DNA from: Maricaulis sp.
GTDB lineage: Bacteria > Pseudomonadota > Alphaproteobacteria > Caulobacterales > Maricaulaceae
Direction: 5' to 3'
DNA: 64,000 bases
Assembly: GCF_039978735.1 (NCBI RefSeq)
Contig: NZ_JBDWAS010000058.1
Coordinates: 525 to 64,524 of the forward strand
Position numbers and translations under genes: made by a program. Positions 3,871 through 45,070 of the stretch are shown here, piece by piece. Positions within the stretch are counted from its first letter, which is position 1, and each line of letters opens with the position of its first letter. The notes beneath the pieces are model-generated. The model searched no databases, was not told the DNA's origin, and saw only the letters and a program-made list of their open reading frames with translations.

Positions 3871-3927
3871 ACGCGCCTCTGTCGCTTTTGTAATACCCGG
3901 CAGGCCTTGTCAAAGTCTGGCCATTTC

Positions 3928-3957
3928 GCTATTTACATTAACGTCAATGTAAATAGC
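3928..3957. promoter_or_regulatory. perfect 12+6+12 palindrome, candidate repressor operator upstream of the hydrolase/DUF2147 operon
   Basis: GCTATTTACATT-AACGTC-AATGTAAATAGC read directly. It is AT-rich in a GC-rich background and ends 18 nt before the ATG at 3976. Its core, ACATTAACGTCAATGT, resembles the site at 6045-6060. Confidence 0.6.
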
Positions 3958-3975
3958 GACGCGAGAGAGACACCC

Positions 3976-4833
3976 ATGGCATCCAATTCCGGAACTCCCA
4001 GCGATCTGGTCATCCAGCGGCGCGACATGCGATTTGGCCGCGATACGCCCAATCCGCGCTGGTGGCACGGGGGGGACCCGGGACGTACGGCCTTCTTCAA
4101 TGCGCTGTCCTCGACCTTCCCGCTTGGCGAGAAGTTCTTCATGCAGTCGATCAAGCGCTATCGCGATCGCACCGAAGAGCCGCTGCGCAGCCAGATCGAC
4201 GACTTCATGTACCAGGAATCCATGCATTCGCGGGAGCATGCCGTCTTCAACCGGCAGGCCGAGGATGCCGGTTATGACATCCGGCCGCTGGAAGAGCGCA
4301 CGCGGGTCACGGTGAGCTGGGCCAAGTCGCGACCGCACCAGATTCAGTTGGCCGCGACGTGCGCGCTCGAGCACTTCACGGCCGTGCTGGCCCATGGCGT
4401 GCTGGCCGACCCGAAATATCTCGACGGGGTCAGCCCGGAGGCGCTGCGTCTGTGGCGCTGGCATGCAATCGAGGAGATCGAGCACAAGGCTGTGGCCTTC
4501 GATACCTGGAACAGCGTGACCCGCAACCTGCCCGGCATTCGCCGCTGGGCCCGGCGCTGTGTCGTGATGGCGACGGCGACCGTCCGGTTCCACTGGGTTA
4601 TCTTTCGCAACACCGCCGATCTGCTCAAACAGGACGGGCTGAACAATTTTGGAACCTGGATGCGTCTGCTCGGTTTCCTGTATGGTCGTCCCGGTCCGAT
4701 GCGGGTGCTGGTACAGGGTGCGTTCGGATATATGCGCCCCGGCTTTCACCCCTGGCACACGGACGATCGCGAACTGGTCGAAGGCGCCCTGGAGTCGCTG
4801 AACATGTTCACGGAGCAGGAGAGTCCCGCATGA
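3976..4833 (+). CDS. predicted metal-dependent hydrolase (PF10118-like family, recalled from memory)
   Basis: The track ORF is 3907..4833, but its first 23 codons read through the operator palindrome, so I prefer the ATG at 3976 (MASNSGTPSD). Motifs: RWWHGGDPGRTAFFNALSSTFPLGEKFF, FMYQESMHSREH, IEEIEHKAVAFD. Confidence 0.7.
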   Translation: MASNSGTPSDLVIQRRDMRFGRDTPNPRWWHGGDPGRTAFFNALSSTFPLGEKFFMQSIKRYRDRTEEPLRSQIDDFMYQESMHSREHAVFNRQAEDAGYDIRPLEERTRVTVSWAKSRPHQIQLAATCALEHFTAVLAHGVLADPKYLDGVSPEALRLWRWHAIEEIEHKAVAFDTWNSVTRNLPGIRRWARRCVVMATATVRFHWVIFRNTADLLKQDGLNNFGTWMRLLGFLYGRPGPMRVLVQGAFGYMRPGFHPWHTDDRELVEGALESLNMFTEQESPA

Positions 4834-5258
4834 TGTCCGGATACCTGCCTTTGCTGGCCGGTCTGCTGATCGCTACGCCGGCCGCCCATGCTGACAGCAT
4901 GCCGGACATCACCGGCGTCTGGGCGACCGGCTCGGAGGGTGGCAAGGTGGAAATCTATCGCTGCGACGACGCGCTGTGCGGCCGGATCGTCGATGCCGAT
5001 GCGCTGCGGGAAAATCCCGACCAGCTGGATGTGCGCAACTCGGACCGCAGCTTGCGCGACCGGCGTCTGGACGGGCTCGTCGTGCTGCAGGACTTCTCCG
5101 GTGGACCACGCGAGTGGGAAGGCGGTCCGGTCTATGACCCCCAGTCCGGCGACGGTGCCCGCAATGGAGAGCTGCGCCTGCGCGAAGACGGAAGTCTGGA
5201 AGTGAAGGGGTGTGTTGCCTTCTTCTGCCGGACCCGGGTCTGGACGCGGGCTGACTGA
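4830..5258 (+). CDS. DUF2147-family periplasmic protein
   Basis: In frame within track ORF 4359..5258. The ATG at 4830 overlaps the upstream TGA (ATGA). Signal peptide MMSGYLPLLAGLLIATPAAHA is followed by ITGVWATGSEGGKVEIYRCDDALCGRIV, the DUF2147 signature. Confidence 0.7.
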   Translation: MMSGYLPLLAGLLIATPAAHADSMPDITGVWATGSEGGKVEIYRCDDALCGRIVDADALRENPDQLDVRNSDRSLRDRRLDGLVVLQDFSGGPREWEGGPVYDPQSGDGARNGELRLREDGSLEVKGCVAFFCRTRVWTRAD

Positions 5259-5261
5259 GGG

Positions 5262-5882
5262 TCAGCCCGTACCTTTCGGGCGCTCCAGGAAGGCCGGCAG
5301 CAAGTCGGCCATGATCCGGCGGCTGGCCTTGTCATCCTGGCCGAGAATGTCCCGCAGCGGCAGACCGATAAGGGCATCGCCGAAGGCGGTCAGCGCAATG
5401 AAGAGAACCGCTGCCTTGATCCGCTCGCGGGGCAGCTGCGGATCGTGTCCGGCCATCTCGTCGACTGCATCGACTACGCCCAGTACAGCCTGCCGGACTG
5501 GCTCGAGCCGGGATGTGTCACCGGTCATCACGATCCAGGACGCAAGCCGGCCTGCACCGCCTTCGCCGAAGGCGTCGAATACGGCATCGACCAGTTCGCG
5601 GGGCGCGCTCTCGTCCGTGCGAAGCCGGGCGACGGCTGCATCGAGCGCATCGCGCAGATCGTCCACCATCGACCCCATCAGGGCCGCCTGCAGGTCGGAA
5701 GCCGATCCGAAGTGGTGGATCAGGTTGGCGTGGGTCACGCCGATCTTCTTGGCCACAGCCGACAGTGTGACGGCATCCGGTCCGGCCTGGAGCAGCAGGG
5801 AGCGCGCCGCGGCGAGGGCTTCGCTTCGTGCCTCGTCCGGCGTTCGCCGCCGGCGTTTCTGAACGGTCTTTTCTTTTGGCAT
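5262..5882 (-). CDS. TetR/AcrR-family transcriptional regulator
   Basis: 206-aa ORF. The N-terminal HTH is SLLLQAGPDAVTLSAVAKKIGVTHANLIHHFGS. It is convergent with the DUF2147 gene and divergent from the TBDR at 6211. Confidence 0.9.
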   Translation of the reverse strand: MPKEKTVQKRRRRTPDEARSEALAAARSLLLQAGPDAVTLSAVAKKIGVTHANLIHHFGSASDLQAALMGSMVDDLRDALDAAVARLRTDESAPRELVDAVFDAFGEGGAGRLASWIVMTGDTSRLEPVRQAVLGVVDAVDEMAGHDPQLPRERIKAAVLFIALTAFGDALIGLPLRDILGQDDKASRRIMADLLPAFLERPKGTG

Positions 5883-6044
5883 GTTGGTTGGTTACTTCGA
5901 TGTAGATAGCGGCTGTCTCCTAGACTGAACACCGGGTTAACACAAGCGGCGAGGGCCCGAAGCCTTGCCAGGAAGGCCTGCGCGCAGCGGAACCTTTTCG
6001 CGAGACGCGGCCTTGAGCACGCAGTGATGGAAAAAATCTTACTG

Positions 6045-6060
6045 ACATTGATATCAATAG
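6045..6060. promoter_or_regulatory. palindromic operator-like site in the TetR/TBDR divergent region
   Basis: ACATTGATATCAATAG contains the perfect 12-bp palindrome ATTGATATCAAT (6047-6058). It matches the 3935-3950 core at 11 of 16 positions. A TTGACA hexamer follows at 6063-6068. Confidence 0.5.
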
Positions 6061-6210
6061 TATTGACACTGTCGTGAATAACTGCACCGATATGCGCTCG
6101 AGGGCAGAGCCGCCGCTGTCAGCGAGGAAAAGAACCGGCGGATCGCCGTGCCCCCTGCCAAGGCCGCCTCAAGAGTGGCTGCCGGGGATCGGCAAGAGGG
6201 AGGAAGATAA

Positions 6211-9200
6211 ATGCGAGCTATCGCAACCGGGCGCGCCTGTCTGAAGGCTGGCGTATCGACTGCTGTTCTTGTTCTGGCGGGGGGTGCTGCCTTCGCGCAG
6301 TCCGCGGACGAGACGGAAACCGAGAATGAGCGCCGCTTTTCCGGCGACGTCATCACCGTAACGGCGCAGAAGCGCGAGGAAGTGATCCAGGATGTGCCGA
6401 TTGCGGTGTCGGCCTTCACGGCCGAGGATCTCAACCTGCGCGGCATCGAGGGCGGGTCGGAACTGCTTCGGGCCATCCCGAACGTCGCCTTTTCGAAGAA
6501 CAACTTCTCGATGTTCAACTTCTCGATCCGCGGGATCGGGACCAAGGCGATCTCCGCGGCCAGCGATCCGGCCGTCGCGATCAGCTTCAACAATGTGCCT
6601 CTGATCCGGAACCGGCTGTTCGAGCAGGAGTATTTCGACGTACAGCGCGTCGAGGTGCTGCGCGGGCCGCAAGGCACGCTCTACGGCCGCAATGCGACCG
6701 GCGGTGTGGTCAACATGCTCCCCAACCTGCCGGAAACCGGCGTGTTCGACGGATCGATCGAGGCCGAGGTCGGTGGGTATGACAGCCGCCGCCTGCGTGG
6801 ATACATAAACATTCCGGTCGGCGACACGTTCGCCCTGCGAGTGGCCGGGGCCTCCACCCAGCGCGAGGGTTTCGACTACAACAGCTTCACGGACCGGCAT
6901 GTGAATGACCGCGACCTGTGGTCCACGCGGGTCTCCGCCCTTTGGGAACCGACCGAACGCTTCAGCGCCAGCCTGATCTGGGAACATTTCGAGGAAGACG
7001 ACAACCGTTCGCGCACCGGCAAGCAATTGTGCACGACGGATCCGGGGCCGACCCAGGTGGGCAGCACGACGGTACCGACTTTCGTCGCCGGGACGATCGA
7101 TTCCGGTGATCTTCTGCAAAACCAGCTGAGCCAGGGCTGCCTGCCGAGCTCCCTGTTCGAGGACGCAGCCTTCGATGCGCCCAATGGCGGATCCCTGACC
7201 ATCGTTCGGGCCGGCAGCATGCTGCTCTATCAGGGACTCTCGTCCGACGGCACGCGCCTCGACATTCCCACCTTCGGTACGGATCCGTATGCAGGAGCGA
7301 CCGTTTCCCGCGACCTGCGGGAGATCCATGCTGCGATCGACCCGCGTTTCCGGGCCGAGAACGACGTCTTTCAGCTCAATCTGGCGTTCGAACTGACCGA
7401 TGATCTGACGCTGTACTCGCAGACAGCCTATGCCAAAGACGACTACTGGGCGACGCAGGATTACGGACGTTTCCTGTCCGATCCCATTTTCCCGGACACC
7501 AGCCTGCGGGTGGACAATAGTGGCAACCCCGCGCCGTCGCCTCTGTCGCCGGGTGGCATCTATACCGACCCGCAACTCGGCGCGTCGTCCCGTATGCTGT
7601 CGGCCGATCTGAGTCGTTCGGACAATTCGCAATGGTATCAGGAAGTGCGGCTGCAATCCGACTTCGAAGGGAGCTTCAATTTCAGCCTGGGTGCGAATTA
7701 TCTGGAGTTCGAGTCGCAGGATGACTACTTCGTTTTCAACAATCTTTTCACGGCGTTGTCTGAATACTACTATAATCAGGACGGGGGAATTGGCTCGACG
7801 AGCCCCTGCGACGAGAACTACAAGGCCGGATCTGATCCGAGCGCCACGGAATGCGTTTATGTCGACCCGACGCCGATAGACAATCTGGCTGGCGACGGAC
7901 ATAACTATTTCCGCAGCCGGAATGTTGTGGAGACCCGTTCCTGGGCCGTCTTCGGCGAGGGGTATTGGGAACTCAGCCCCGAACTGCGTCTGACGCTCGG
8001 CCTTCGCTATACGGACGACCAGAAGACTGCGACCCCCTATCCCAGCCAGCTTCTGCTGGGTGCGCAGTCGGATGGCGGTCCGGGTCCGTCTTCCGGCGGG
8101 TATTCCCGCCGCGGTTATCAGGCCGACCCCGATGTCGAACTGGGCTGGGAGGCCCTGACCGGCCGGGCCGTGATCGACTGGATGCCGGATTTGTCCTTTA
8201 CCGAGGATACGCTTGTCTATGCGTCGTTCTCGCGTGGCTATAAGGGCGGCGGCACAAATCCGCCGCGGGCCGAGATCAACCCTGAAGTGATCCAGTATCA
8301 GCCGCTCGAAGGCACGTTCGAGCCGGAATATGTCAACGCCTTCGAAGTCGGCACCAAAAATACCTTCGCCAACGGGCGCGGCATGCTGAATCTGACGGGT
8401 TTCTGGTACGATTATGAAGACTACCAGGTGTCGCAGATCGTCGACCGCATCTCGCTCAACGAAAATTTCGACGCCCGGATCTGGGGGCTGGAGCTGGAGG
8501 CGATGTACCGTCCGACGCCCGACTTCCAGATCGACGGAAATCTCGGTTACCTCAACACCCGCATCGCCGATGGCGAAGGGTCCATCGATGTCATGAACCG
8601 GACGGCGGGAAATGATGGCTGGACCGTGATCCGGCCCTGGGTGCAGGTCCCGTCGAACTGCATTGCGCCGACCGAGCATGTCGAGACCATACTTCAAAGG
8701 GCGCCGATCTTCGGAGTGGTGACCTCCAACGCCCTCTCCGCGCTCTGCGGTGGTGCGGCGCGGTTCGGCGCCTTCGATCCGGACTTCAATACCACTCTGC
8801 CTTACTGGCTGTTCTATGGATTCGAGTACAATCCGCTGGAAGATGCCCCCAACGGCGGGCGTGGTTTCGAGACCGATCTGAGCGGCAATGAACTGCCCAA
8901 TGCGCCCAACTGGACGCTGAATGTCGGGGCCCAGTACACCTTCCATCTCGGTGAATGGGAGCTGACCCCGCGGGCCGACTACTACTGGCAGGGCGAAAGC
9001 TATTTCCGGGTCTACAACACCGAATACGACCAGCTGGAGTCCTGGGAGAACCTCAACGTCTCGGTGACCCTGATGCGGCCGCGCGATGGTTTCGTCATCG
9101 AGGGCTATATCAAGAACGTGTTCGACGATGCGCCGATCGTCGACGCCTTCACCAACAGCGACGATACGGGTCTTTCGACCAATGTGTTCACGCTCGATCC

Positions 9201-9237
9201 CCAGATCTGGGGTGTCAGCGTACGGGCAGCCTTTTAG
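6211..9237 (+). CDS. TonB-dependent receptor
   Basis: 1008 aa. Signal peptide ends AFAQSADE. Plug region: DVITVTAQKREEVIQDVPIAVSAF and VEVLRGPQGTLYGRNATGGVVN. C-terminal aromatic residue (VSVRAAF). GGGAGGAAG Shine-Dalgarno before the ATG. Confidence 0.9.
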   Translation: MRAIATGRACLKAGVSTAVLVLAGGAAFAQSADETETENERRFSGDVITVTAQKREEVIQDVPIAVSAFTAEDLNLRGIEGGSELLRAIPNVAFSKNNFSMFNFSIRGIGTKAISAASDPAVAISFNNVPLIRNRLFEQEYFDVQRVEVLRGPQGTLYGRNATGGVVNMLPNLPETGVFDGSIEAEVGGYDSRRLRGYINIPVGDTFALRVAGASTQREGFDYNSFTDRHVNDRDLWSTRVSALWEPTERFSASLIWEHFEEDDNRSRTGKQLCTTDPGPTQVGSTTVPTFVAGTIDSGDLLQNQLSQGCLPSSLFEDAAFDAPNGGSLTIVRAGSMLLYQGLSSDGTRLDIPTFGTDPYAGATVSRDLREIHAAIDPRFRAENDVFQLNLAFELTDDLTLYSQTAYAKDDYWATQDYGRFLSDPIFPDTSLRVDNSGNPAPSPLSPGGIYTDPQLGASSRMLSADLSRSDNSQWYQEVRLQSDFEGSFNFSLGANYLEFESQDDYFVFNNLFTALSEYYYNQDGGIGSTSPCDENYKAGSDPSATECVYVDPTPIDNLAGDGHNYFRSRNVVETRSWAVFGEGYWELSPELRLTLGLRYTDDQKTATPYPSQLLLGAQSDGGPGPSSGGYSRRGYQADPDVELGWEALTGRAVIDWMPDLSFTEDTLVYASFSRGYKGGGTNPPRAEINPEVIQYQPLEGTFEPEYVNAFEVGTKNTFANGRGMLNLTGFWYDYEDYQVSQIVDRISLNENFDARIWGLELEAMYRPTPDFQIDGNLGYLNTRIADGEGSIDVMNRTAGNDGWTVIRPWVQVPSNCIAPTEHVETILQRAPIFGVVTSNALSALCGGAARFGAFDPDFNTTLPYWLFYGFEYNPLEDAPNGGRGFETDLSGNELPNAPNWTLNVGAQYTFHLGEWELTPRADYYWQGESYFRVYNTEYDQLESWENLNVSVTLMRPRDGFVIEGYIKNVFDDAPIVDAFTNSDDTGLSTNVFTLDPQIWGVSVRAAF

Positions 9238-9249
9238 CCGTCAGGCGAG

Positions 9250-9274
9250 GGGCGGGCACCTCGGGTGCCCGCCC
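9250..9274 (+). terminator. GC-rich hairpin after the TBDR gene (no clear U-tract)
   Basis: GGGCGGGCACC-TCG-GGTGCCCGCCC, a perfect 11-bp stem starting 13 nt after the stop at 9237. Confidence 0.45.
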
Positions 9275-9971
9275 TGCACCGTGTCCGGCCGGGCTTCCTT
9301 CAAACGGTGCCAGGCCTGATTCCGCCAGGCGGTCCGCGACGAAAGCGGGAGAGGGACGCTCCTGCGGCCTTGCGGCGGCCATGCAAGATCAGCGGACCAA
9401 TTCCGGGGCCCGCAGACAGTTAGCCGATAGGGGGGCGAGCCTGCCGCGAGGCAAGGGCTCGCGTAGTGGTGATGCCCGGATCCACCGGATCCGGCGTGTG
9501 GGCCAGTGCTGTTCCGGCCGCCATCTGCGGTGCGGATCGTCACTTCCTTCGGAGGCATCTCCGTGGGGCAAGTATCTATATACAAATTTACTTAAGTATT
9601 TGTTTTCAAATAATAATTTGACTCCAGGGTGCTGTGCGTGCATGCTACCCAAAGTTTCGCAACGGGCAGATGAAGGCTAGCCGGACGGATGCATTCGTCC
9701 TGTGTCATCAGCGGCTGAGGTCGCGAACTTCATCTGCATGAATTGCTCCGGAGCGTGTGTCCGGAGCTGGCCGTATCGCTCGTGCCGTGAGGTGCGTGCG
9801 ATCGTGAGAGGCAGGTCTGCCTCTCCTCCTGCACCTCGTGCCGGGCGCGCCCCTCTGCGCCCGGCGCCTTTCCCGGGCCCGGAAGGCGCGGTGCCGGATC
9901 TGTTCAAGCGTTCAGTGAAATCAATCGTCAGACGGGCCCGCGCTGACCGCGTCTCAAATGGAGGAAATACA

Positions 9972-10409
9972 ATGAAAATCAAGACCACGCTCATGGCCGC
10001 CGTATTCGGCATGGCCGTCACCGCCGCCCCGGCTCTGGCTGCCTGGCCGCCGAACACCAACCAGACGATTTCCGGCACGCTCAGCCTGGAGCAGAGCATC
10101 CAGATCGACTGTGTTGTCACCGTCAATCTGAGCATTGACGGATCCGGCGACCCGACGATTACCGGCCGCAGCTTTGCGCCGGGCAGTTTCCTGTGCGGCG
10201 GCGTGGTTTCGCCGTCTGGTACCTGGACGGCCGCTTGGGGCCCCGGAGCCAATGAAGTGACGCTCTCGATCGGCGCGTCCTCTGTCCTTGGCTCCTGCTT
10301 CGATACGGTGGTGGCCGATTTCGACCACACCACCAATACGCTCACCTTCAACAATGTGACCGTGTCGGGAACGCCGAGCGATTGCTACGTTGACGGCTCC
10401 CTGAGCTGA
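9972..10409 (+). CDS. small Sec-exported, Lys-free, 4-Cys beta-rich protein of unknown function
   Basis: In frame inside track ORF 9702..10409. The ATG at 9972 is preceded by GGAGGA. Signal peptide MKIKTTLMAAVFGMAVTAAPALA|AW. The mature ~122 aa are rich in S/T/G/V/N, have 4 Cys (IDCVV, FLCGG, GSCFD, SDCYV), no Lys and one Arg. Confidence 0.75.
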   Translation: MKIKTTLMAAVFGMAVTAAPALAAWPPNTNQTISGTLSLEQSIQIDCVVTVNLSIDGSGDPTITGRSFAPGSFLCGGVVSPSGTWTAAWGPGANEVTLSIGASSVLGSCFDTVVADFDHTTNTLTFNNVTVSGTPSDCYVDGSLS

Positions 10410-10441
10410 GTTCGGTCTCCACTTTCTGGTGGAACACGACG

Positions 10442-10472
10442 GGAGTCGGGCACGTATCGCGTGCCCGGCTCC
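10442..10472 (+). terminator. intercistronic hairpin (possible attenuator) between the small-protein gene and the ABC genes
   Basis: GGAGTCGGGCACG-TATCG-CGTGCCCGGCTCC, a 13-bp stem with one mismatch, followed by TTCGTCGTT. Confidence 0.35.
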
Positions 10473-10539
10473 TTCGTCGTTCATGCTCGGGCTTGAAGTG
10501 GAGCACAGTGGAGGTAGCATCTGTGCTGGAGGACACGGT

Positions 10540-11214
10540 TTGCTGGCGTTGACAGGTGTCACGAAAACTTATGGCGACGGCGCAGGTCGTGTGACCGCGC
10601 TCGACGATGTGTCGCTCCATGTGGAAGCCGGTGGTTTTGTGGCCGTGTGCGGACCGTCCGGGTCCGGCAAGAGTACTTTGCTCAACATCATCGGCTTGCT
10701 GGACAAGCCGGATGCCGGGGATGTGTCGCTCGGTGGCGAGCGGGTCGTGCTTGCCGGCCGGGCAGAGGCGGCCCGACTGCGCAACCGGCTCATCGGCTTC
10801 GTCTTCCAGTCCTTCCAGCTTCTGCCCCGCCTGACAGCCTGGGAGAACGTGGCCTTGCCGCTGTTCCATCGCGGCGTCGGGCGGGACGAGCGCCGGGTAA
10901 AGGCACTCGCTGCGCTCGACAAGGTCGGTTTGTCGGACCGGGCCACGCATCGACCGGAGGCCCTGTCCGGCGGCCAGCGCCAGCGCGTTGCGCTGGCCCG
11001 CGCGCTGGTCGGCGAGCCCGCGCTGATGCTGGCAGACGAGCCGACCGGCAGCCTGGACAGCGTCAGTGCCGGCGCCGCGCTCGATCTCCTGCGCGATGTG
11101 AATGTGCGTCTGGGCGTCACCATCGTCATGGTCACGCATGACCGTGAAGCAGCAGCCCGCTGCGACCGCACGATCAATATCCGGGACGGCCGGGTGGCCG
11201 GGGAGGCGGCATGA
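10540..11214 (+). CDS. ABC transporter ATP-binding protein (MacB/LolD-type)
   Basis: The track ORF starts at 10429. I prefer the TTG at 10540, which sits 6 nt after GGAGGA (10528-10533). Walker [13 protein letters not shown], signature LSGGQRQRVALARA, Walker B LMLADEPTGSLD. Confidence 0.9.
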   Translation: MLALTGVTKTYGDGAGRVTALDDVSLHVEAGGFVAVCGPSGSGKSTLLNIIGLLDKPDAGDVSLGGERVVLAGRAEAARLRNRLIGFVFQSFQLLPRLTAWENVALPLFHRGVGRDERRVKALAALDKVGLSDRATHRPEALSGGQRQRVALARALVGEPALMLADEPTGSLDSVSAGAALDLLRDVNVRLGVTIVMVTHDREAAARCDRTINIRDGRVAGEAA

Positions 11215-12407
11215 GGGCGGGTCCGCCACCGGCAGCGCTTGCCCTGGAAGCACTGACCAATCTGAGGGGGCAGGGTGCGCGCTCATTGCTGGCGCTACTG
11301 GGCATTGTGATCGGTGCCGCAGCGATCGTGGCGCTGACCAATCTCGGACATGTCGCTCAGGCCGAGACGCTGAAGCGGTTCGAGCAGATGGGGGTCGATA
11401 TGCTGGTTCTGCGCGGTATTCCGGCCGGCGAAGGCCCGGTCCGTCTCGATCGGGAAACGATCGAGCGGCTCCCTGCAAGCGATCCCGACGTGATTGAAGC
11501 CACACCGTTGGCTGTCGGGCGGGACGGGGTCCGGCCGTTGAACAGGAGGCAGGCGGCGGAAGAAGACGCCATGATCGTCGCTGTTACCCCGGCCATCTTC
11601 CAGGTTGCCGGGCTGGGCATTGCGCGCGGCCGCGCGCTGGGTCCGTTCGATGCCTGTGTCCCTGTCGCCGTTGCCGGATCAGTCGTCGCGCGCGATCTGA
11701 CGGCCGGCCAGGCCCACCTCGAACCGGGCGAACGGCTCAGCCTGGCGGGTTATGTCTTCACGCTGGTCGGCGTGCTTGAACCGGCGCCGCTGGAGGCGCT
11801 CAGCCCGGTCGACTATGACCGGTCGATCCTGATCCCGCTCTCCTGCGCCCGGCGCGCCCTGGCCGCCGGGGACCCCACCGTGGCACTCGTCAGGTTGCAG
11901 CCCGAAGCCGATCCAGACCGGACAGGGCCGCGTCTCGCGGCGGCGCTGGGCAATGCGACCGCGACGGTGACCGTGCGCAGCGCGCGCGAGATGATCGCGG
12001 CCATGAAGCGCCAAACGGGTCTCATTGCACGTTTGCTGGCGGGGATCGGAGGGATATCGCTGGTTGTCGGCGGGATTGGCGTGCTGAATGTCATGCTGAT
12101 GAGTGTGATGGAACGCCGCCGCGAGATCGGTCTGCGGGCGGCGCTTGGCGCCACTCCAGCCGATATACGCTCCCTGTTCGCGATCGAGGCCGCGATCCTG
12201 TCGCTTGGCGGAGGGATGCTGGGGGCGGCATTGGGTATGAGCGTTACCGTATTGTTTTCCTTTCTGTCCGGCTGGGACTATGCGGCGGCGTGGTGGATAC
12301 CCATGCTCGGCCCTGCCGTGGCGGTTCTCGTCGGCGGTGCCTTTGGTCTTTATCCCGCCTTCGCTGCTGCCCGGGTCGATCCGATCGAGGCCTTGCGTGC
12401 GGAATAG
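11211..12407 (+). CDS. ABC transporter permease, FtsX/MacB-type (single module with a large periplasmic domain)
   Basis: 398 aa. N-terminal TM SLLALLGIVIGAAAIVAL. C-terminal FtsX region ISLVVGGIGVLNVMLMSVMERRREIGLRAALGA. Its start overlaps the stop of the ATPase gene. Confidence 0.9.
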   Translation: MRAGPPPAALALEALTNLRGQGARSLLALLGIVIGAAAIVALTNLGHVAQAETLKRFEQMGVDMLVLRGIPAGEGPVRLDRETIERLPASDPDVIEATPLAVGRDGVRPLNRRQAAEEDAMIVAVTPAIFQVAGLGIARGRALGPFDACVPVAVAGSVVARDLTAGQAHLEPGERLSLAGYVFTLVGVLEPAPLEALSPVDYDRSILIPLSCARRALAAGDPTVALVRLQPEADPDRTGPRLAAALGNATATVTVRSAREMIAAMKRQTGLIARLLAGIGGISLVVGGIGVLNVMLMSVMERRREIGLRAALGATPADIRSLFAIEAAILSLGGGMLGAALGMSVTVLFSFLSGWDYAAAWWIPMLGPAVAVLVGGAFGLYPAFAAARVDPIEALRAE

Positions 12408-13878
12408 TCCTGCCCTTCTCCTTGCGGTGGCCGCCCTGGCGGTGCACTGGGCTCCGGCGGAGGCCCGGCAACGGTTACCTCAACCGGACCCGCTCGCCGG
12501 TGTGCCGTCACCGCCGGACAATCCCGTTCCGGGCGGACAGGTGATCGAGATCACGCTCGACGAGGCTGTCGCGCTGGGGCTCCGCCGGAACCGGACTGTC
12601 CAGGCTGCCCATCTGCAGCGCGCGGCCGAACGGTTCGATCTCTATGTCGCCGAGCGGGCCTTTGCGCCGCGCGGTGAATTGCGTGCGGAAGTCGTTCGCC
12701 GGGTCTCCGGCGGTGTCACCCGGTCCGAGGCATCGGTCTCGCCGGGGATAGGCCTTGTGACGCCGCTGGGCACGCAGATCGATTTTACCTGGCAGCTCAC
12801 CGAACGGCTCGGCGGTGCCGGTGGCGGTCTGTCCCAATCGGCGACCGTGAGTGTCAGCCAGCCACTGGTCCGCGGTGCTGGGCCCGAGGTCAATCTTGCT
12901 CCGGTCCGGATCGCGCGGCTGCAGGAGCGGATCAACCGTCTCCGGCTGGAGGGCACGGTTTCGGATACGATTACCGCGATCGTCTTTGCCTATCGCGCCT
13001 TGATGCAGGCGCAGGAACAGGTACGGCTGGCCGACATATCGCTGGAACGTGCACGGGCCCTGCTGGAGACCAATCGCCGCCTCGTCGAGGCAGGCCGGAT
13101 GGCGGCGGCCGACATCGTGCAGACCGAGTCAGCTGTCGCGGCCCAGGATGTTGCCCGCCTGCAGGCCGAGCAGAACCTCAACAGTGCCCAGCTAGCGTTG
13201 ACACGTCTTCTTGCGCTCGACCCGCGAACCAACATCCAGGCCGCTGGCCCTGTCGATGCAGAATATGTCGCCGTCGACACTGTTCGCGCGGTACAGCTGG
13301 CCCTGGACAATCGTGTGGATGTGCTGGCGCAGGACATTGCCGTCCAGCAGGCCCGTCAATCCCTTGTGCTTGCACGTGATCGCCGGCGCTGGGATGTCTC
13401 CCTGTTCGGTGCTGTTACGCAGCGGGGCGCCGAACAGGGGCTGGCGGAAATCTATGAGGACGAGACGGATGTAACGGCTGGCGTGCGCGTGGAGATTCCC
13501 TTGGGTGATGTGTCAGCCGAACAGGGCGTGGTGCGCGCCCGCACCAGCCTCGATCTGGCGGAACTGCGATCGGCGGATCTGGCCCAGGCCGTCGAGGTTC
13601 AGGTGCGCGACGCGGTGCAGCAGGTCGAGGCGCGATGGCGTCAGGTGGAGACGGCACGCCGGGCGCGGGACCTCGCTGAACGCGCCCTGGAACTGGAGCA
13701 GGAAAAGCTGCAGGCCGGCCGGACCTCGAATTTCGAGATTCTCTCGCTCCAGGCAGGGCTTCGCACGGCCGACATCCAGGCGCTCGCAGCCGAGATCGCC
13801 TACCTCAACGCGCTGACCGCGCTGGACCAGCAAATCGGGAGTACGCTTGAAACATGGCGCATCACGCTCGAACCCTGA
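12397..13878 (+). CDS. TolC-family outer-membrane efflux protein
   Basis: In frame in track ORF 12280..13878. The GTG at 12397 gives signal peptide VRNSPALLLAVAALAVHWAPAEA. Two-repeat OEP architecture (LDEAVALGLRRNRTVQAA ... LDQQIGSTLETW). Confidence 0.85.
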   Translation: MRNSPALLLAVAALAVHWAPAEARQRLPQPDPLAGVPSPPDNPVPGGQVIEITLDEAVALGLRRNRTVQAAHLQRAAERFDLYVAERAFAPRGELRAEVVRRVSGGVTRSEASVSPGIGLVTPLGTQIDFTWQLTERLGGAGGGLSQSATVSVSQPLVRGAGPEVNLAPVRIARLQERINRLRLEGTVSDTITAIVFAYRALMQAQEQVRLADISLERARALLETNRRLVEAGRMAAADIVQTESAVAAQDVARLQAEQNLNSAQLALTRLLALDPRTNIQAAGPVDAEYVAVDTVRAVQLALDNRVDVLAQDIAVQQARQSLVLARDRRRWDVSLFGAVTQRGAEQGLAEIYEDETDVTAGVRVEIPLGDVSAEQGVVRARTSLDLAELRSADLAQAVEVQVRDAVQQVEARWRQVETARRARDLAERALELEQEKLQAGRTSNFEILSLQAGLRTADIQALAAEIAYLNALTALDQQIGSTLETWRITLEP

Positions 13879-15089
13879 TTGCCGCTGCGGCGCTGCTCAT
13901 GCTGTCCCCCGGGTGCGGTCCGGGAGCAGGTGCACCTGTGACCGGTGCGACGCAAAGCCTGGTCCTGGAACCCCGTCCCGTCGAGATTGTGCTGGGTTTC
14001 ACCGGCCGCATCAGTCCCGGCGACCGTGCGGATCTGCTCGCACCCTATGAAGGCGTGATCGAGACCCTTCACGTGCATGTGGGCGACCGGGTCGCTGCGG
14101 GGGATGCGCTCGTCACGCTCAATCCGGCAGACCTGCAGCGCGAACGCGCGCAGGCCGAGGCGGCGCTTCTCCGCGCCGAGGCCGACGCCGCCGAGCTGGA
14201 GGATTGGGAGAACGGTCCGGAAATGTCCCGGGCTCGTCGTGATGTGGCGGGCGCCCGGGCAGACCTGTCGGATCTTGAGCGGCGTCTCGAGGAAACCGCG
14301 GCCTTGCTGGAGCGTGGACTGGTCCCCCGCGGGGAGTATGACGGGCTGGTGCAGCAGCGCCGCGATCTGGTCATGCAGCTGGACCAGGCGCTTGAACAGC
14401 TGGATGCGACCCGTGAGCGAGGTACCGGAAGCCAGCGCCGGATTGCGTTGCTCGAGCGCGATCTGGCGCGAGAGCGTCTTGAGCGGATCGAGGTCGAGCT
14501 GGCCAATTCAACCCTTCGTGCGCCGGTCGCCGGTCTCGTGGTGCGGCCCCCCGATGCCGATGGTGAGCTGGGCGAGCCGCTACGCGCCGGCAGCCGTGTC
14601 AGCCGCGGCCGGCCATTGCTGATTATTGCGCGTCCGGATGCGCTTGATGCGAGTTTCAGGCTCGACGAGGGCGATGTGACAGCGCTCCTTCCCGGTGCTC
14701 CTGTGCGGGTTACAGGGCCGGGCTTTCCGGGGGTGGAGCTGACCGGTACGCTCACGGCCGTCGCCGGTCAGGCGGAGGCCTCGGCCGCGGGGCAGCTGGC
14801 CGAGTTCACGGCTACGGCCCGTCTGGATCCCCTGCCGGAGCCAGCCGCTGAGTCGGTAAGGATCGGCATGACGGCCGACATCGATGTTGTGGTGTTTGCC
14901 GATGATGCGGCTCTCCTGGTCCCGGCACAGGCAGTCGAGGGCTCGCCGGGGGATGCCTGGGTTCATGTCAGGGACGCGCCCGGCGCGCCGCCGCGCCGCG
15001 TACAGGTGGAGATCCGGGCAACCGGTCCTGCCGGTGTCGTAGTGGGGGAGGGCGTTGCTGCGGGCGACACGGTCGTCTGGCAGAACTGA
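13854..15089 (+). CDS. HlyD/MacA-type periplasmic adaptor
   Basis: 411 aa. N-terminal hydrophobic anchor LIAAAALLMLSPGC. A long Ala/Glu/Arg coiled-coil segment. NSTLRAPVAGLVV lipoyl-like motif. Overlaps the TolC gene by 25 nt. Confidence 0.85.
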   Translation: MAHHARTLIAAAALLMLSPGCGPGAGAPVTGATQSLVLEPRPVEIVLGFTGRISPGDRADLLAPYEGVIETLHVHVGDRVAAGDALVTLNPADLQRERAQAEAALLRAEADAAELEDWENGPEMSRARRDVAGARADLSDLERRLEETAALLERGLVPRGEYDGLVQQRRDLVMQLDQALEQLDATRERGTGSQRRIALLERDLARERLERIEVELANSTLRAPVAGLVVRPPDADGELGEPLRAGSRVSRGRPLLIIARPDALDASFRLDEGDVTALLPGAPVRVTGPGFPGVELTGTLTAVAGQAEASAAGQLAEFTATARLDPLPEPAAESVRIGMTADIDVVVFADDAALLVPAQAVEGSPGDAWVHVRDAPGAPPRRVQVEIRATGPAGVVVGEGVAAGDTVVWQN

Positions 15090-15110
15090 ACTGGCGCCGG
15101 CGAGGCGCGG

Positions 15111-16316
15111 CTACACCCGTTCGACCACCATGGCGCTGCCGACGCCCGAACCGCCGTGCACCACAACCAATCCAAGACTGCCCCCTTGGCGCTCCATACC
15201 GTCAACAAGCGTGCCCAGCAGGATGGCACCTGAGGCCCCCATCGGGTGCCCCATCGCCAGGTGTCCGCCATCGGGATTGACCCTGTCGGGATCGGGTGCG
15301 TATTCGCGCTCGAAGCGGACCGGCGTGGCGGCGAAGGCCTCCATGAACTCGATCCGGTCGAAATCGCCGATCGCGAGCCCGGTCTGCGCGAGAACACTGT
15401 CCATCGCGGCGAAGCCGGCGGTGAGTTGCAGCACGGGATCGGCGGTGGCTTCGGCAAAGCCGCGAATCCGCGCGCGCGGGGCGAGGCCGGCGGCCTCGCC
15501 AGCCGCCCGTGACCCGATCAGCACCAGTCCGGCGCCGTCGCAGGTCGGCGGGCAGTTGGCCACGGAATGCACGTGCCGGATCGCGTCGAGTTCCGGCCGC
15601 GCCGCGAGCATGATGGCGTCGAATCCTTTTGCGCCCATTCCGGCGAAGGCCGGTTCCATCGCGGCGAGGCTTTCTGCCGTTGTGTCGGGGCGGATGCCTT
15701 CATCATGGGCGAGGGCGACCGATCCGTCCGCGCGGACGATCGGCACAACGCCCCCCAGATCGCCGCGCGCCCAGGCGGCTGCTGCGCGCTGGTGCGAGCG
15801 CAGCGTCACGGCGTCGAGGTCCGCCTTGTCATAGCCGTTCATCGTGGCCATCAGGTCGGCGGACAGGACCACCGGCACATAGCGCAGGCGGGCGGCGGTT
15901 TCCGGGTCGTCATAATAGAAAGCGTGGTCGCCCATGAAGGGCACGCGCGACATCATCTCGACACCGCCGGCAATGCGCAGCCGGTCGTCGCCAAGCGCGA
16001 GGGCGTCGCTGGCAGACAGGCCGACGGCGGTGAGGCCGGAAACGCAGAAATTGTTGAGTGAAAGCGCCCGCATCTCCGGCGGCAGATTGGCGTGTAGCCG
16101 GCTGACCAGCGCGATATGTCCGCCCTGGGCGCCGATCTGGCCGACACAGCCCAGCGTCAGCCCGGCCGCCCGACCGATCGTGTCTTCGCCGGTGCGGGTC
16201 CTGAGCGCATCGATCAGCTGGCTGACCAGTTCCTGCGGTGTGAATTCGGCAAGGCCTCCGGTGGCCTTCGACTTGCCGCGCGGCGTCCGCACCGCGTCGT
16301 AAACATAGACTTCCAT
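15111..16316 (-). CDS. acetyl-CoA C-acyltransferase (thiolase)
   Basis: 401 aa. MEVYVYDAVRTPRGKSK, active-site context NNFCVSGL, C-terminal GHPMGASGAILLG and VVHGGSGVGSAMVVE. Confidence 0.9.
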   Translation of the reverse strand: MEVYVYDAVRTPRGKSKATGGLAEFTPQELVSQLIDALRTRTGEDTIGRAAGLTLGCVGQIGAQGGHIALVSRLHANLPPEMRALSLNNFCVSGLTAVGLSASDALALGDDRLRIAGGVEMMSRVPFMGDHAFYYDDPETAARLRYVPVVLSADLMATMNGYDKADLDAVTLRSHQRAAAAWARGDLGGVVPIVRADGSVALAHDEGIRPDTTAESLAAMEPAFAGMGAKGFDAIMLAARPELDAIRHVHSVANCPPTCDGAGLVLIGSRAAGEAAGLAPRARIRGFAEATADPVLQLTAGFAAMDSVLAQTGLAIGDFDRIEFMEAFAATPVRFEREYAPDPDRVNPDGGHLAMGHPMGASGAILLGTLVDGMERQGGSLGLVVVHGGSGVGSAMVVERV

Positions 16317-16322
16317 GCCCGA

Positions 16323-17582
16323 TCAGACCCCGATCACCAGACTGACACTGGCGGTCGTCGATCCGCCGACATTATAGGTCGCCGCTGTGCGGGCGCCCTC
16401 GACCTGGCAGTCCCCCGCCCGGCCCGAGGTCTGGCGGGCTGCATCCAGTGCCATGCGCACGCCGGTCGCGCCGACGGGATGGCCAAGGCCGATCAGACCG
16501 CCCGACGGGTTGAAGGGAAGCTTGCCGCCGGGCGCGATGACGCCGTCCTCGACCGGTTTCCAGGCCTCGCCCGGAGCGGACAGGCCGAAATGCTCGATCG
16601 CCATGTATTCGGTGACCGAGAAACAGTCATGGGTTTCAACAAGGTCGAGATCGTCGGGCCCCGACAGGCCTGCCCGGGCGTAGGCATCGGTGATCGCCTT
16701 GCGCACCCAGGGGAAGATATAGCCGTCGGTGCCGGCGCTCTCCGCCAGCTTTGACTCAAGCAGAAGCGGCGCCGTGGTGTGGCCCCAGCCTTTCAGTCGC
16801 GGAATGTCTTCCAGATCGAGGCCGCGGGCGTCGGCATACTCCCGGGCCACCTCTTCTGAGGCGAGGAAGATCACGGCCGCACCGTCGGTGACCTGGCCGC
16901 AATCGCTCTTGCGCATCCAGCCCTCGATCACCGGATTGGCTTCATCGTCCTGGGCAAAGCTGCGCTCGGTAAACTCCCAGTTCCGCGTCTGGGCGTTCGG
17001 ATTGCGGCGGCCGTTGGCGAAGTTGATCTTCGAGATCTCCGCGAGGTGTTCCGGGTTCAGCCCGTAGCGGCGGTCGTACTCAGCAGCGAGATTGGAGAAC
17101 ATGGCCGGCCAGAGGTAGCGGGCGCCGATGGCCTCGCGTCCGGCCCAGGCCGCGGCGCCAAGATTCTCCGCTGCGGTCTGGCCGGGCACATTGCGCATCA
17201 TCTCGACGCCGATGACGCCAGCCAGTCCATAGCGGCCGGCCTCGATATCCGCCATGGCCGCCAGGATCGCCATGGAGCCGGAAGCGCAGGCGGCTTCGTG
17301 CCGGCTGGTGGGCAGGCCGGCGAAGGCGGGATTGGCGTGGACGGCCATGCCGCCCAGCAGACCCTGGCCGCAGAAGAGTTCCGCCGCGAAATTGCCGACA
17401 TGGAGCACTTCGACATCGCCGGCATCGATCCGCGCATCCTCGAGCGCGGCCTCGGTCGTCTCGGCGATCATGTCGAACAGGCCCTTGTTCTCGCGCGTCC
17501 AGTTGCGCGCGAAATCGCTCTGGGCGCCGCCGAGAATGAAGACGGGCGGGGCGCTGGTCCGGGCGGTCGATCGATAGGTCAT
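16323..17582 (-). CDS. thiolase-like protein (SCP-x / lipid-transfer-type thiolase)
   Basis: The track ORF extends to 17618 (GTG). The ATG at 17582 (MTYRSTART) has AAGGGGA upstream. Motifs: EAACASGSMAIL, NPSGGLIGLGHPVGATGVRM. Confidence 0.85.
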   Translation of the reverse strand: MTYRSTARTSAPPVFILGGAQSDFARNWTRENKGLFDMIAETTEAALEDARIDAGDVEVLHVGNFAAELFCGQGLLGGMAVHANPAFAGLPTSRHEAACASGSMAILAAMADIEAGRYGLAGVIGVEMMRNVPGQTAAENLGAAAWAGREAIGARYLWPAMFSNLAAEYDRRYGLNPEHLAEISKINFANGRRNPNAQTRNWEFTERSFAQDDEANPVIEGWMRKSDCGQVTDGAAVIFLASEEVAREYADARGLDLEDIPRLKGWGHTTAPLLLESKLAESAGTDGYIFPWVRKAITDAYARAGLSGPDDLDLVETHDCFSVTEYMAIEHFGLSAPGEAWKPVEDGVIAPGGKLPFNPSGGLIGLGHPVGATGVRMALDAARQTSGRAGDCQVEGARTAATYNVGGSTTASVSLVIGV

Positions 17583-17666
17583 GGCGTCCCCTTTTCGGTG
17601 TTCTGCGGCTCTGGGCACTCCGGCCGTCAGGCGATGATGGTCTGGTCGGGCAATCTGACAATGAAT

Positions 17667-17998
17667 TAACTTGCGTAGTCAAACCCACTTTATCGATGCT
17701 ATGGTCGTGGAGCAAGTGGAGAGCTGCGGGCACGGTGCTTGTGGTCTGTGCAAGTCAGTTTGCGGTCGCGATAAAGCCCAGACTGTGTGGCCTGTTGCAG
17801 CATCTGTGCAGGGCCATCCGGGGTTTGAATTCGCAAGTCCGTTCCGGGGCGCGGGACGTTCAGCGTGCACGGTCAGACAGCCGATTTTCTGGTTTCAGTG
17901 CGCAAGTGCACAAATGCCGAATAATGGCGGCAAGTCCCTTATATATCGCGATTTATCGCCCGGTTCGAAGAATCCGTACTAACTTGCATTGACGAACC
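17667..17998. promoter_or_regulatory. cluster of 5-6 copies of the ACTTGC(A/G)..AAACC motif in the thiolase/TBDR divergent intergenic region
   Basis: 17667-17685(+) TAACTTGCGTAGTCAAACC. 17739-17757(-) TGACTTGCACAGACCACAA. 17822-17840(-) GGACTTGCGAATTCAAACC. 17891-17909(-) GCACTTGCGCACTGAAACC. 17919-17937(-) GGACTTGCCGCCATTATTC (weak). 17980-17998(+) TAACTTGCATTGACGAACC. Confidence 0.5.
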
Positions 17999-41812: not shown

Positions 41813-41843
41813 TGTCACATGGCTTCTGGCAAGTTGTCACATG
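41813..41843 (+). promoter_or_regulatory. 9-nt perfect direct repeat spaced 22 nt, at the expected position of the ECF-dependent promoter
   Basis: TGTCACATG at 41813-41821 and again at 41835-41843. GGTAAC lies at 41802-41807. The element sits between the FecR stop and the TBDR start. Confidence 0.35.
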
Positions 41844-41908
41844 AGGGGGATCGGGCGTCCCCGTATCGAGGTGCGGGGATGCGCGTCAGCGGCAGGACAT
41901 CAGTCAGG

Positions 41909-44900: not shown

Positions 44901-45070
44901 TCGCCGGCGCTGATGGCCGGCTGCAGATTTTCGGCGGCATCAACAATGTCTTCCACGATTACGGCCCCTTCCTGCCAAGTGGCACGGAAAGCGGCGGCCG
45001 GCGCAATTTCAGTCCGGGCTATGATGCAGCCGGGCGGCGCGTCTATGCCGGTATCCGGGCGCGCTGGTAG
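41909..45070 (+). CDS. TonB-dependent receptor with N-terminal STN signalling domain (FecA-like transducer)
   Basis: Track ORF 41819..45070. I prefer the ATG at 41909 (MKGVRAALLGALLPVMMPHVPAVSQE); 41879 is also possible. STN: FDIPAGPLGPALSRFALVTSHQLL..LLAGTGLEFSTVD. Plug: IEISTGGASAVYGSDAIAGVVNFVL. C-terminal GIRARW. Confidence 0.85.
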   Translation: MKGVRAALLGALLPVMMPHVPAVSQETQTAAPDAFSFDIPAGPLGPALSRFALVTSHQLLAESHLVAGVQTRGAEGQYSAEEGLERLLAGTGLEFSTVDARTHVLGRRSGNPSAGVSTDARPGIVRLSGHPVSDDPAGTPAASAYIDPQEVILVTGSRFERAGRAAVLPVQVIGRTALETSGAIEIGEMIASQSPATLEFSNASTHLSAQNAGLSSIGLRGLGTTRTLVLIDGRRTVANSGNASRFGSDTIPAEFVERVEISTGGASAVYGSDAIAGVVNFVLIDSLEGGRLLAQAGMTQDGGGQYHVLSATQGWRFGDGRGRLLFNVTRDHMRRIGAEDRDWAQVPVSLAGDGETLEADLSSYTPGGRFIGYDFWYDEAGLQTDFDIAVDGYDTRSFATISVPRERDLFALKLDYDFDGGVSAYFTGLFSHSESLSSREAQTAYYNERFGLDNERIGMIPVDHPLVPEPIRQAALDGGLSGITWRRRFSELGEEYRRNDRTTQRFWAGLQGEAGIWSWDIALGHGRYDQDQLRSGEVNYARIRNALDIEADPASPGNYRCVSAAARAAGCAPLDMFGVNAISAEAADYIRATDRLEVEVEQWTLGGSALGDVALPDGRVISLAWGAEHRVDSQRTRGDAAALNRETGYVGVPDLDAVGHASEVFAEALVPVVPDRFDVTAAVRLAHYDIDRVGLVGSYRLGGVWSPSDALAFRGQVSRAQRAPSLTELYSGPRGDYDTVSDPCHGVTGASSGRIAENCRSEPGIARAIAEDGIYEQTITSVYAPNSGNPDLEEERSDAVTLGLVYTPVRAEGLSLSVDLYDIRVSGAISSLSSRALLSECYGAPVAISANRYCADIQRGETGQLLEMQNRVANLNEIRSAGADVTLDYAWQVSPASIWAGDWDLRILYAYTDRLEQVFEGSDGDVSRSVWDGEVGAPHHRWTARLGVTRGPWLVQWRVRYEGAAIDGHDRAAKANAGDMLFLEIDPWMQHDLHVRYLAGADGRLQIFGGINNVFHDYGPFLPSGTESGGRRNFSPGYDAAGRRVYAGIRARW

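Follow-up and report, generated by a model that had tools for sequence, protein, structure and literature searches.

This work concerns a small gene and the membrane machinery encoded around it in Maricaulis sp. (NCBI RefSeq assembly GCF_039978735.1, contig NZ_JBDWAS010000058.1), on a stretch of 64,000 nucleotides that is called the window throughout and is numbered from its first letter. The gene encodes a secreted protein of the PraA/PraB family, hereafter PRA, and it stands between a gene for a TonB-dependent receptor (TBDR) and four genes of a MacB-type tripartite pump. An earlier inspection, made without database searches (the sequence-only reading), had described here an open reading frame (ORF) of 145 amino acids (aa) with a Sec signal and an acidic, Lys-free mature part with four Cys, first in an order that continues with a hairpin, an ABC ATPase, a MacB-type permease, a TolC-like channel and an HlyD adaptor; all of these elements are present, in that order.

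The PRA gene (9972..10409, forward strand) starts at an ATG that has a GGAGG Shine-Dalgarno sequence 7 nt on its 5' side. As read from the sequence, the signal peptide of the precursor (MKIKTTLMAAVFGMAVTAAPALA, cleaved before AWPP) is of the standard signal-peptidase-I type, and the mature protein, whose N-terminus is AWPPN, has 122 aa, a mass of 12.4 kDa, a pI of 4.05 and no Lys. The four Cys, at positions 47/75/109/138, probably form two disulfides in the periplasm. Across 32-37 diverse relatives these Cys, and no other residues, are invariant; since homologues moreover span from 98% to about 20% identity, PRA is a real gene. Handling as a lipoprotein, in a Lol-like or Aat-like way, was ruled out because there is neither a lipobox nor an acyltransferase gene; likewise, the idea that the 735-bp spacer between receptor and PRA (9237-9972) contains a second, decayed PRA copy was ruled out, as no match to the PRA profile occurs there.

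The sequence-only reading had not recognised the family of this protein and had called for profile and fold searches of its mature part, of which the former were successful. In NCBIfam, PRA gives weak direct matches to PraA (E 5.5e-6, 26 bits) and PraB (E 3e-4, 20.4 bits), and falls short of the equivalog cut-offs of these models (150 and 120 bits, respectively; NF041561/NF041562). Precomputed matches to the Pfam family PraA_PraB (PF28046) are found on PRA homologues at 39-74% identity, both paralogues and orthologues, and the window PRA belongs with them; the Pfam scan of PRA itself returned no match because the version used was without the newest families, PF28046 included. Close homologues are few and chiefly metagenomic. 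A profile built on the window clade and run against 1.84 billion representatives collected 372 clusters, in which nearly all of the best 150 matches are about 145-175 aa long; ten distant members of this set were scanned and match PraA/PraB at about 30-121 bits, the six most PraA-like of them at about 65-121 bits. PRA has the features of the family, namely a precursor within this length range, an N-terminal Sec signal and four conserved Cys, and it lacks the C-terminal tail '...SSPxLTIxP' that is found in most members. On these sequence comparisons PRA belongs to the PraA/PraB superfamily as a divergent member and is orthologous to neither protein, because its scores lie far under the equivalog cut-offs and the usual tail is missing.

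The fold searches gave no comparable answer. Two AlphaFold models (pLDDT 75.7 and 78.8, the latter being the AlphaFold2 model of the window PRA) are all-beta with eight strands, and a structure search of the PDB with both returned no match at E <= 0.001. The best TM-scores, 0.36-0.46, are non-significant and belong to nitrobindin, HphA, NHBA, LolA-like proteins and lipocalins, that is, to generic eight-stranded barrels and lipid carriers. A sequence search of the PDB with PRA had no match. Since neither model matches the PDB significantly, no fold class is claimed for PRA.

The four genes that follow on the forward strand encode a complete pump. The ABC ATPase (10540..11214; ABC_tran, E 6.5e-33) most likely starts at the TTG at 10540, which is preceded by a GGAGGA Shine-Dalgarno sequence and gives a protein of 224 aa, as in relatives; its best NCBIfam matches are DarD, LolD, MacB and DevA and, unlike in Escherichia coli MacB, it is a polypeptide separate from the permease. 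The permease (11211..12407) combines an FtsX domain (PF02687, E 3.4e-16) with the MacB periplasmic core domain (MacB_PCD, PF12704, E 2.3e-22) and aligns over its full length to the MacB structures 5gko, 5lil and 5nik. The TolC-like outer-membrane channel (12397..13878; 493 aa; OEP, E 8e-35; TIGR01844, E 6e-21) starts at the GTG at 12397 and has its own signal peptide, and the HlyD/MacA-like periplasmic adaptor (13854..15089) matches HlyD_3, RND_mfp (119.7 bits, cut-off 94.9) and MacA structures. The set has every part of a MacB-type (type VII ABC) tripartite pump. Successive genes overlap, by an ATGA at 11211, by 11 nt at 12397-12407 and by 25 nt at 13854-13878, which is consistent with one operon. 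A second FtsX-type permease gene of the window, at 56936-59551, has no PraA-like neighbour.

The company that PRA and the pump keep in other genomes was established by a scan based on permease alignment, with one genome per species (185,579 species), from which the best 79 loci (cited by their L numbers) were kept and annotated with PraA-like family profiles and the window proteins. For pumps of other species that have 6 kb or more of flank, a PRA gene is found no further than 10 kb away in 31 of the 33 loci with a permease identity of at least 45%, and in 8 of the 24 with an identity of 44% or less; those 31 loci have one to six PraA-like copies each. A metagenome scan gave only 8 loci. PRA and pump stay together in at least six distinct architectures. 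In Maricaulis the order is TetR regulator, receptor, one or several PRA and pump, and in several Sphingomonas and metagenome-assembled genomes (MAGs) an extracytoplasmic function (ECF) sigma factor and FecR precede receptor, PRA copies and pump. Caulobacteraceae have the pump and then a convergent receptor-PRA pair; other Sphingomonas have PRA, TetR, DUF2147 and a receptor divergent from the pump, ECF sigma and FecR; Brevundimonas has PRA and pump, with the receptor not detected (L063, L066, L068, L071, L081); pseudomonads have pump, PraB and FadL. The order of the window, TBDR-PRA-ABC-MacB-OEP-HlyD, recurs in L017-24, L029-30, L033, L041, L050, L052 and L054-55. PRA-positive pumps fall, in a tree of the permeases, into a single large alphaproteobacterial clade and a separate, tight pseudomonad subclade. 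The module is conserved in Caulobacterales, Maricaulales, Sphingomonadales and the pseudomonad subclade. The sequence-only reading had named, as a refutation of its idea, pumps of relatives with no small-protein gene beside them; the outcome is in favour of the idea, the PRA gene being kept in 31 of 33 loci despite repeated reshuffling of the genes around it, and fortuitous adjacency is disfavoured. The linkage between PRA and pump is real, and either ancient or recurrent. One contig of the set, L028, binned as 'Propionibacteriales', has an alphaproteobacterial-type pump that groups tightly, in the same tree, with that of L027, a Caulobacterales MAG, and its placement is probably a binning error in a public MAG.

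Sister pumps without PRA (L062, L064, L072, L074, L076-L080, L082, L084, L086, L089, L091, L092, L094) are flanked by other small proteins with Sec signals, such as those encoded at L089:8478-8891 (minus strand), L092:8892-9323 (minus strand), L072:14091-14546 (plus strand) and L062:8262-9102 (plus strand). Some of them are FlhE-like (PF06366; 30.0 and 28.6 bits against a cut-off of 25) and frequently present in two or three copies; an unclassified family of about 150 aa occurs at 10 loci, and in L062 two tandem paralogues of about 100 aa lie directly upstream of the ATPase gene. PRA-negative sister pumps with such neighbours occur in Photorhabdus, Stutzerimonas and Azospirillum. The pump clade as a whole may serve small proteins of the periplasm.

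The partner that the sequence-only reading overlooked is the receptor. The TBDR gene upstream of PRA (6211..9237, forward strand) encodes 1008 aa with Plug and barrel domains, the Plug domain beginning at residue 59 and no STN extension being present. PRA-linked TBDRs constitute one orthologous subfamily, with phmmer scores of 1000-1550 bits, compared with 30-140 bits for other TBDRs of the same loci, and PraA-like genes adjoin such a receptor in nearly all non-pseudomonad loci. Within the window, PRA stands beside one of five TBDR genes; the other four (18091-20406, 41819-45070, 45127-48099, 60829-63906 (-)), one of which encodes an STN domain, have no PraA-like neighbour. Since several PRA loci keep the receptor without a pump nearby, the importer is a more constant partner of PRA than the pump is. 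A frame of cargo plus exporter is consequently incomplete, as it leaves out this specific TBDR (FadL in pseudomonads); because the importer is the most constant neighbour of PRA, the unit is better described as an uptake module with an export arm. As to the idea of a dedicated cargo and exporter within that unit, the linkage and the hairpin speak for it, whereas the passage of PRA through the pump stays inferential and some PRA loci are pumpless.

Between near-identical Maricaulis strains, only the PRA cassette differs strongly, and the receptor does so in patches. The window is colinear with Maricaulis virginensis VKM B-1513 (L017), at 92.6% nucleotide identity. With respect to a second Maricaulis lineage (L018/L006), identity in the flanks is 88-93% and the segment 9225-10512, from the receptor stop codon to just 5' of the ATPase start, is replaced there by a three-gene PraA-like cassette, three PRA copies thus corresponding to the single one of the window. 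The best-matching PRA of that lineage is 68% identical in amino acids and the receptor 87%, while every other protein is 94-99% identical. The differences in the receptor are concentrated in discrete patches of 40-80 residues (about 281-360, 441-480, 521-560 and 801-880) that are 55-75% identical, the plug and the remaining barrel being 90-100% identical; judged from the alignment, the variable patches look like surface loops that co-vary with the PRA cassette. The segment 9225-10512 behaves as a swappable cassette between close Maricaulis strains. Five tandem PRA copies are present in a related metagenomic contig (L001) and five to six in Sphingomonas L033. An 11-bp perfect hairpin (9250..9274, forward strand), found in a repeat search of the window, lies just 3' of the receptor stop codon.

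PRA is separated from the pump genes by a strong stem-loop (10442..10472, forward strand) with a GC-rich stem of 13-14 bp, which may act as a terminator or attenuator or as a 3'-end stabiliser. The 141-nt spacer between PRA and the ATPase gene folds at -66.8 kcal/mol (z = -4.2 vs shuffles), and a hairpin 3' of PRA is kept in the colinear relatives L017 (-38.5 kcal/mol) and L019 (-30.5 kcal/mol). Moreover, when the best 45-nt hairpin within 110 nt after PraA-like stop codons is compared with controls taken inside the permease genes of the same loci, the post-PRA hairpins are the stronger (median -26.8 kcal/mol, n=70, vs -20.9, n=156; Mann-Whitney p = 1.6e-11), also where PRA is co-directional with and just upstream of the pump (n=22; median -27.6 kcal/mol, p = 9e-6), and many of them across the loci have T-tails. 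The hairpin reported by the sequence-only reading is hence an instance of a conserved feature. In two metatranscriptomes, the sole near-identical contigs from the locus cover the 5' part of PRA and its leader. PRA appears far more expressed than the pump genes, in keeping with the earlier proposal of a highly expressed small gene and a putatively attenuated pump, which the conserved hairpin and the PRA-only contigs fit.

Other transcript data are sparse. Across 5800-17700, no read came from four RNA-seq runs filed under the species label of the DNA runs in which the window occurs. The window is matched at 100% by DNA runs of one organism label, whose RNA-seq, oligo-dT libraries included, has no reads from the locus, and because of this discrepancy the Maricaulis DNA in those runs probably comes from a bacterium that lives with, or contaminates, the sequencing project of a eukaryote. 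A bioreactor metatranscriptome contig (2 mismatches) spans 9512-9673, in the 735-bp spacer 5' of PRA, and reaches upstream of the only sigma-70-like site of the spacer (9587-9614), a site that does not score above chance; this contig points to a long leader sequence, to transcription that runs on from the receptor gene or to a small transcript of its own.

The genes around the module offer some indications of its physiology. A TetR-family regulator (5262..5882, reverse strand; TetR_N, E 6.6e-10), divergent from the receptor gene and weakly resembling the fatty-acid-responsive FasR in NCBIfam, is encoded in the same position in L001, L006 and L017-19. Two further conserved neighbours lie on the forward strand, a PF10118 'Metal_hydrol' gene (3907..4833; Pfam E 3.7e-79), which is again found beside the module in loci of Maricaulis, Sphingomonas and Caulobacteraceae, and a gene for a small DUF2147 protein (4830..5258; PF09917, E 3.9e-23, over the C-terminal 112 aa of the ORF), which is found beside TBDR and PRA genes in many loci, pumpless ones included. 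In L104 (8454-9617), an AurF-like PF11583 protein occupies the PF10118/DUF2147 position; these neighbours may perhaps act in oxidation of the substrate or as a carrier in the periplasm. On the other side of the pump, two thiolase genes (15111..17618, reverse strand; NCBIfam acetyl-CoA C-acyltransferase and PRK06289) provide a context of acyl-CoA catabolism; the pair has the same position in the Maricaulis relatives, and thiolases are also encoded in Brevundimonas loci. Furthermore, a full beta-oxidation gene set directly follows PRA in L106, and steroid- or aromatic-type genes are nearby in L010-13. These catabolic neighbours point to lipids.

A counterpart of the module is present in pseudomonads. 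In Ectopseudomonas chengduensis (L090) the order is ABC-MacB-OEP-HlyD-PraB-FadL, with a bona fide PraB (179.7 bits, cut-off 120) followed by a FadL/TodX channel (E 1.9e-122). The same layout is that of PA4594-PA4589 of P. aeruginosa, in which PA4594-PA4591 are a pump operon, with the same four-gene split MacB-type pump as in the window (PMC6437102), PA4590 is pra (PMC5410065) and PA4589 is a FadL homologue (PMC5491041). According to the supplement of PMC5410065, growth on alkanes vs glycerol raises transcripts 12.9x for PA4590, 10.5x for PA4591, 7.8x for both PA4592 and PA4593 and 2.7x for PA4594, and the Ribo-seq changes are 20.7x for PA4589, 52x for PA4590, 7.3x for PA4591, 6.2x for PA4592, 8.2x for PA4593 and 8.4x for PA4594; the RNA-seq fold changes of PA4590-PA4594 are given there in one column with those of alkB1 and alkB2. 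Pump, pra and fadL are co-induced on alkanes in P. aeruginosa. PraA, the founder of the family, is summarised in PMC4542665 (citing Hardegger 1994) as extracellular and induced by alkanes in P. aeruginosa, and a praA mutant as growing poorly on hexadecane. As reported in the same accounts, the Pseudomonas protein was recovered from culture fluid (PMC4542665), PraA and PraB solubilise alkanes (PMC4542665, PMC5410065) and the Pseudomonas protein is active when supplied externally (Hisatsuka 1977, cited in PMC5410065); the extracellular location and the alkane-solubilising activity are established in them for the Pseudomonas proteins only (PMC4542665, PMC5410065).

PRA resembles the Pseudomonas proteins (pra, or PA4590, in P. 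aeruginosa and praA-praB in P. protegens CHA0) in its precursor of about 150-170 aa with a Sec signal and four invariant Cys, as well as in the position of its gene beside an outer-membrane importer of hydrophobic compounds. It differs from them in being only about 20-30% identical (26 bits where the cut-off is 150) and in having no '...SSPxLTIxP' tail; in addition, the importer of the window is a TBDR and not FadL, no alkB gene is near PRA and the host is a marine Maricaulis.

Taken together, these observations are best accommodated in a TetR-controlled, hemophore-like module for the acquisition of a poorly soluble hydrophobic substrate, in which PRA is exported by the MacB-type pump, a proposition that we regard as evenly balanced. 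PRA, with its own Shine-Dalgarno sequence and the strong hairpin on its 3' side, would be made in excess over the pump and would enter the periplasm through Sec, where its two disulfides would probably be formed. The tripartite pump, with its MacA-like adaptor and TolC-like channel, would then expel PRA across the outer membrane; outside the cell, PRA would bind the hydrophobic substrate and pass it to the TBDR encoded just upstream, a role that in pseudomonads would be taken by the FadL/TodX protein, and the imported compound would feed acyl-CoA catabolism. Gene content, family, the conserved linkage of PRA with both pump and importer and the conserved hairpin are shown by the present analysis, and extracellular location and co-induction by the literature on Pseudomonas; the pump as export route, the docking of PRA on the receptor and the nature of the substrate are what we infer in this scheme.

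Several points weigh against it. A folded, disulfide-bonded beta protein of 12.4 kDa is large for a TolC-type duct, and STII, the established protein substrate of MacAB-TolC, has only about 5 kDa. Receptor and PRA occur with no pump within about 10 kb in L010-13, L015 and L099-L105, often with DUF2147, and the Caulobacter locus L016 has PRA with neither receptor nor pump; Microbulbifer spongiae (CP098023) is one of the species with a pumpless PRA locus. Ligand binding finds no support in the fold of PRA, since the PDB holds no significant match. As regards expression, the stem-loop at 10442-10472 has no T-run and is not called by a simple terminator scan, and the metatranscriptome evidence consists of contig presence only. 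Finally, in the literature searched, no experiment was found that ties any protein of the PraA family to a MacB-type pump, and no paper links Pra to PA4591-94 or a PraA-like protein to a TonB receptor.

A different assignment of roles, the main rival and in our judgement the less likely one, is that the cargo of the pump is a small hydrophobic compound (left-over substrate, a lipid surfactant or a toxic intermediate, for instance a fatty alcohol or fatty acid), whereas PRA leaves the cell by another way, such as type II secretion or vesicles, or acts as a periplasmic carrier from the outer-membrane importer to the inner membrane. MacB-type pumps that load small molecules from the periplasm are well known, for example PvdRT-OpmQ for pyoverdine and DevBCA for a glycolipid, and these precedents favour the idea, as do the ATPase, which matches DarD, LolD, MacB and DevA equally well, the tight fit of a folded 12.4-kDa protein in the TolC duct and the many PRA loci in which the receptor, the more constant partner, is kept with no pump nearby. 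On the other hand, the neighbourhoods of related loci contain no conserved biosynthetic genes for a small cargo, and loci of the Brevundimonas type consist of PRA and pump only. Moreover, next to the sister pumps that lack PRA stand genes for FlhE-like proteins and for two unclassified families of small proteins with Sec signals, and because these pumps carry other small Sec-signal proteins in place of PRA, a protein cargo fits better than a common small molecule. The receptor patches that co-vary with the PRA cassette are long and loop-like and the plug is conserved, which suggests a contact outside the cell.

FlhE has been proposed to plug the flagellar export gate, and the occurrence of FlhE-like proteins beside sister pumps, together with the constant vicinity of PRA genes to membrane machinery, brings to mind an accessory part, that is, a subunit in the periplasm or at the cell surface by which the pump or the receptor would be gated or loaded. 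We consider this role of PRA improbable: a fixed stoichiometry would be expected of a subunit, yet PRA copies vary from one to six and are swapped as a cassette between close strains, a strong hairpin separates PRA from the pump genes, than which it appears far more expressed, and the Pseudomonas protein is described as present in culture fluid and active when supplied from outside (PMC4542665; Hisatsuka 1977, cited in PMC5410065). Lastly, that the genes are neighbours by chance, or by inherited synteny with no functional link, is scarcely credible: part of the linkage signal is shared descent, because most PRA-positive pumps belong to one alphaproteobacterial clade, but proximity has been kept while order, strand and regulators were reshuffled repeatedly, an unrelated pseudomonad subclade has the same pairing, the genes are co-induced in P. 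aeruginosa, and PRA is beside only one of the five TBDR genes of the window.

The module with PRA as the cargo of the pump can be set against four known systems. With the secretion of STII by MacAB-TolC it shares a MacB_PCD/FtsX permease, a MacA-like adaptor, a TolC-like channel and a proposed cargo that is Sec-exported, disulfide-bonded and taken from the periplasm. It differs in having distinct genes for ATPase and permease, a channel gene within the operon and a proposed cargo that is about 2.5 times the size of STII and whose gene adjoins the pump; of the two steps of an STII-type secretion, the first is indicated by the Sec signal read in PRA, and the second, release by the pump, is presumed. 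In the Aat system of enteroaggregative E. coli, a MacB-like permease, an ATPase, a TolC-like channel and an adaptor-like protein serve dispersin (Aap), a Sec-dependent protein of about 10 kDa encoded with the system. The combination of dedicated MacB-like pump parts with a small Sec-dependent protein is the same, and a cargo of the size class of PRA is possible because Aat exports dispersin. The Aat system, however, needs the acyltransferase AatD and N-terminal lipidation of its cargo, whereas no AatD-type gene is among the annotated neighbours in the window or in the 79 related loci, and the mature PRA begins with AWPPN and not with Gly.

The arrangement of the genes resembles that of the Has hemophore, whose operon, hasI-hasS-hasR-hasA-hasD-hasE-hasF, encodes a sigma factor, an anti-sigma factor, the receptor, HasA and the ABC exporter. 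PRA is likewise encoded between a TBDR and an ABC exporter, and in the ECF-sigma/FecR relatives the whole series (sigma, anti-sigma, STN-bearing receptor, small secreted protein, exporter) follows in the same order, with an STN signalling domain on 6 of 8 receptors. The window itself differs from Has, as it has a TetR regulator and a receptor with no STN in place of an ECF sigma/anti-sigma pair and an STN-bearing one. HasA has no Sec signal and leaves the cell in one step by type I secretion, guided by a C-terminal signal, while PRA has a Sec signal and its MacB-type pump loads from the periplasm. No likeness of PRA to HasA appeared in the Pfam scan or among the PDB fold matches, and its substrate is probably a lipid or hydrocarbon and not heme. 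The PRA system would work like Has without being a member of it. A last parallel is PvdRT-OpmQ, a MacB-type pump that exports pyoverdine from the periplasm, the loaded carrier returning through the adjacent TBDR FpvA. Here too a MacB-type pump would send out a carrier that works with a TBDR; the difference is that pyoverdine is a peptide siderophore made by a non-ribosomal peptide synthetase, while the only conserved candidate for a carrier in the window is a ribosomally made protein.

The single parts are already known, both PraA/PraB and the MacB-type pump and TBDR, and two-step export of the MacB type has precedents in STII and dispersin. What appears new is their combination, that is, a Has-like operon logic joined to a Sec/MacB route and to a ligand that is probably a lipid or hydrocarbon. 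A wider and tentative view is that the proteins of the PraA family are 'lipophores', carriers made on ribosomes, and that a dedicated clade of split MacB-type pumps is a two-step secretion system for small folded proteins of the periplasm, among them PraA-like proteins, FlhE-like ones and those of the unclassified family of about 150 aa, which makes three or more families with no relation to one another; in such a scheme insoluble hydrophobic nutrients would be captured outside the cell and delivered to a cognate TBDR or to FadL, sometimes triggering ECF-sigma signalling.

PraA was recognised in the 1970s as a factor outside the cell that helps in the use of alkanes, and for its export the adjacent PA4591-PA4594 pump is the obvious candidate route in P. 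aeruginosa. To our knowledge, only a handful of protein cargoes are established for MacB-type pumps, many of which are orphans. The module occurs widely among Alphaproteobacteria of sea and soil (Maricaulis, Caulobacter, Brevundimonas, Sphingomonas), groups that are relevant to the turnover of hydrocarbons and lipids and, if the proposal is true, a protein shuttle working with a TBDR would extend the hemophore principle past metals and heme to water-insoluble nutrients.

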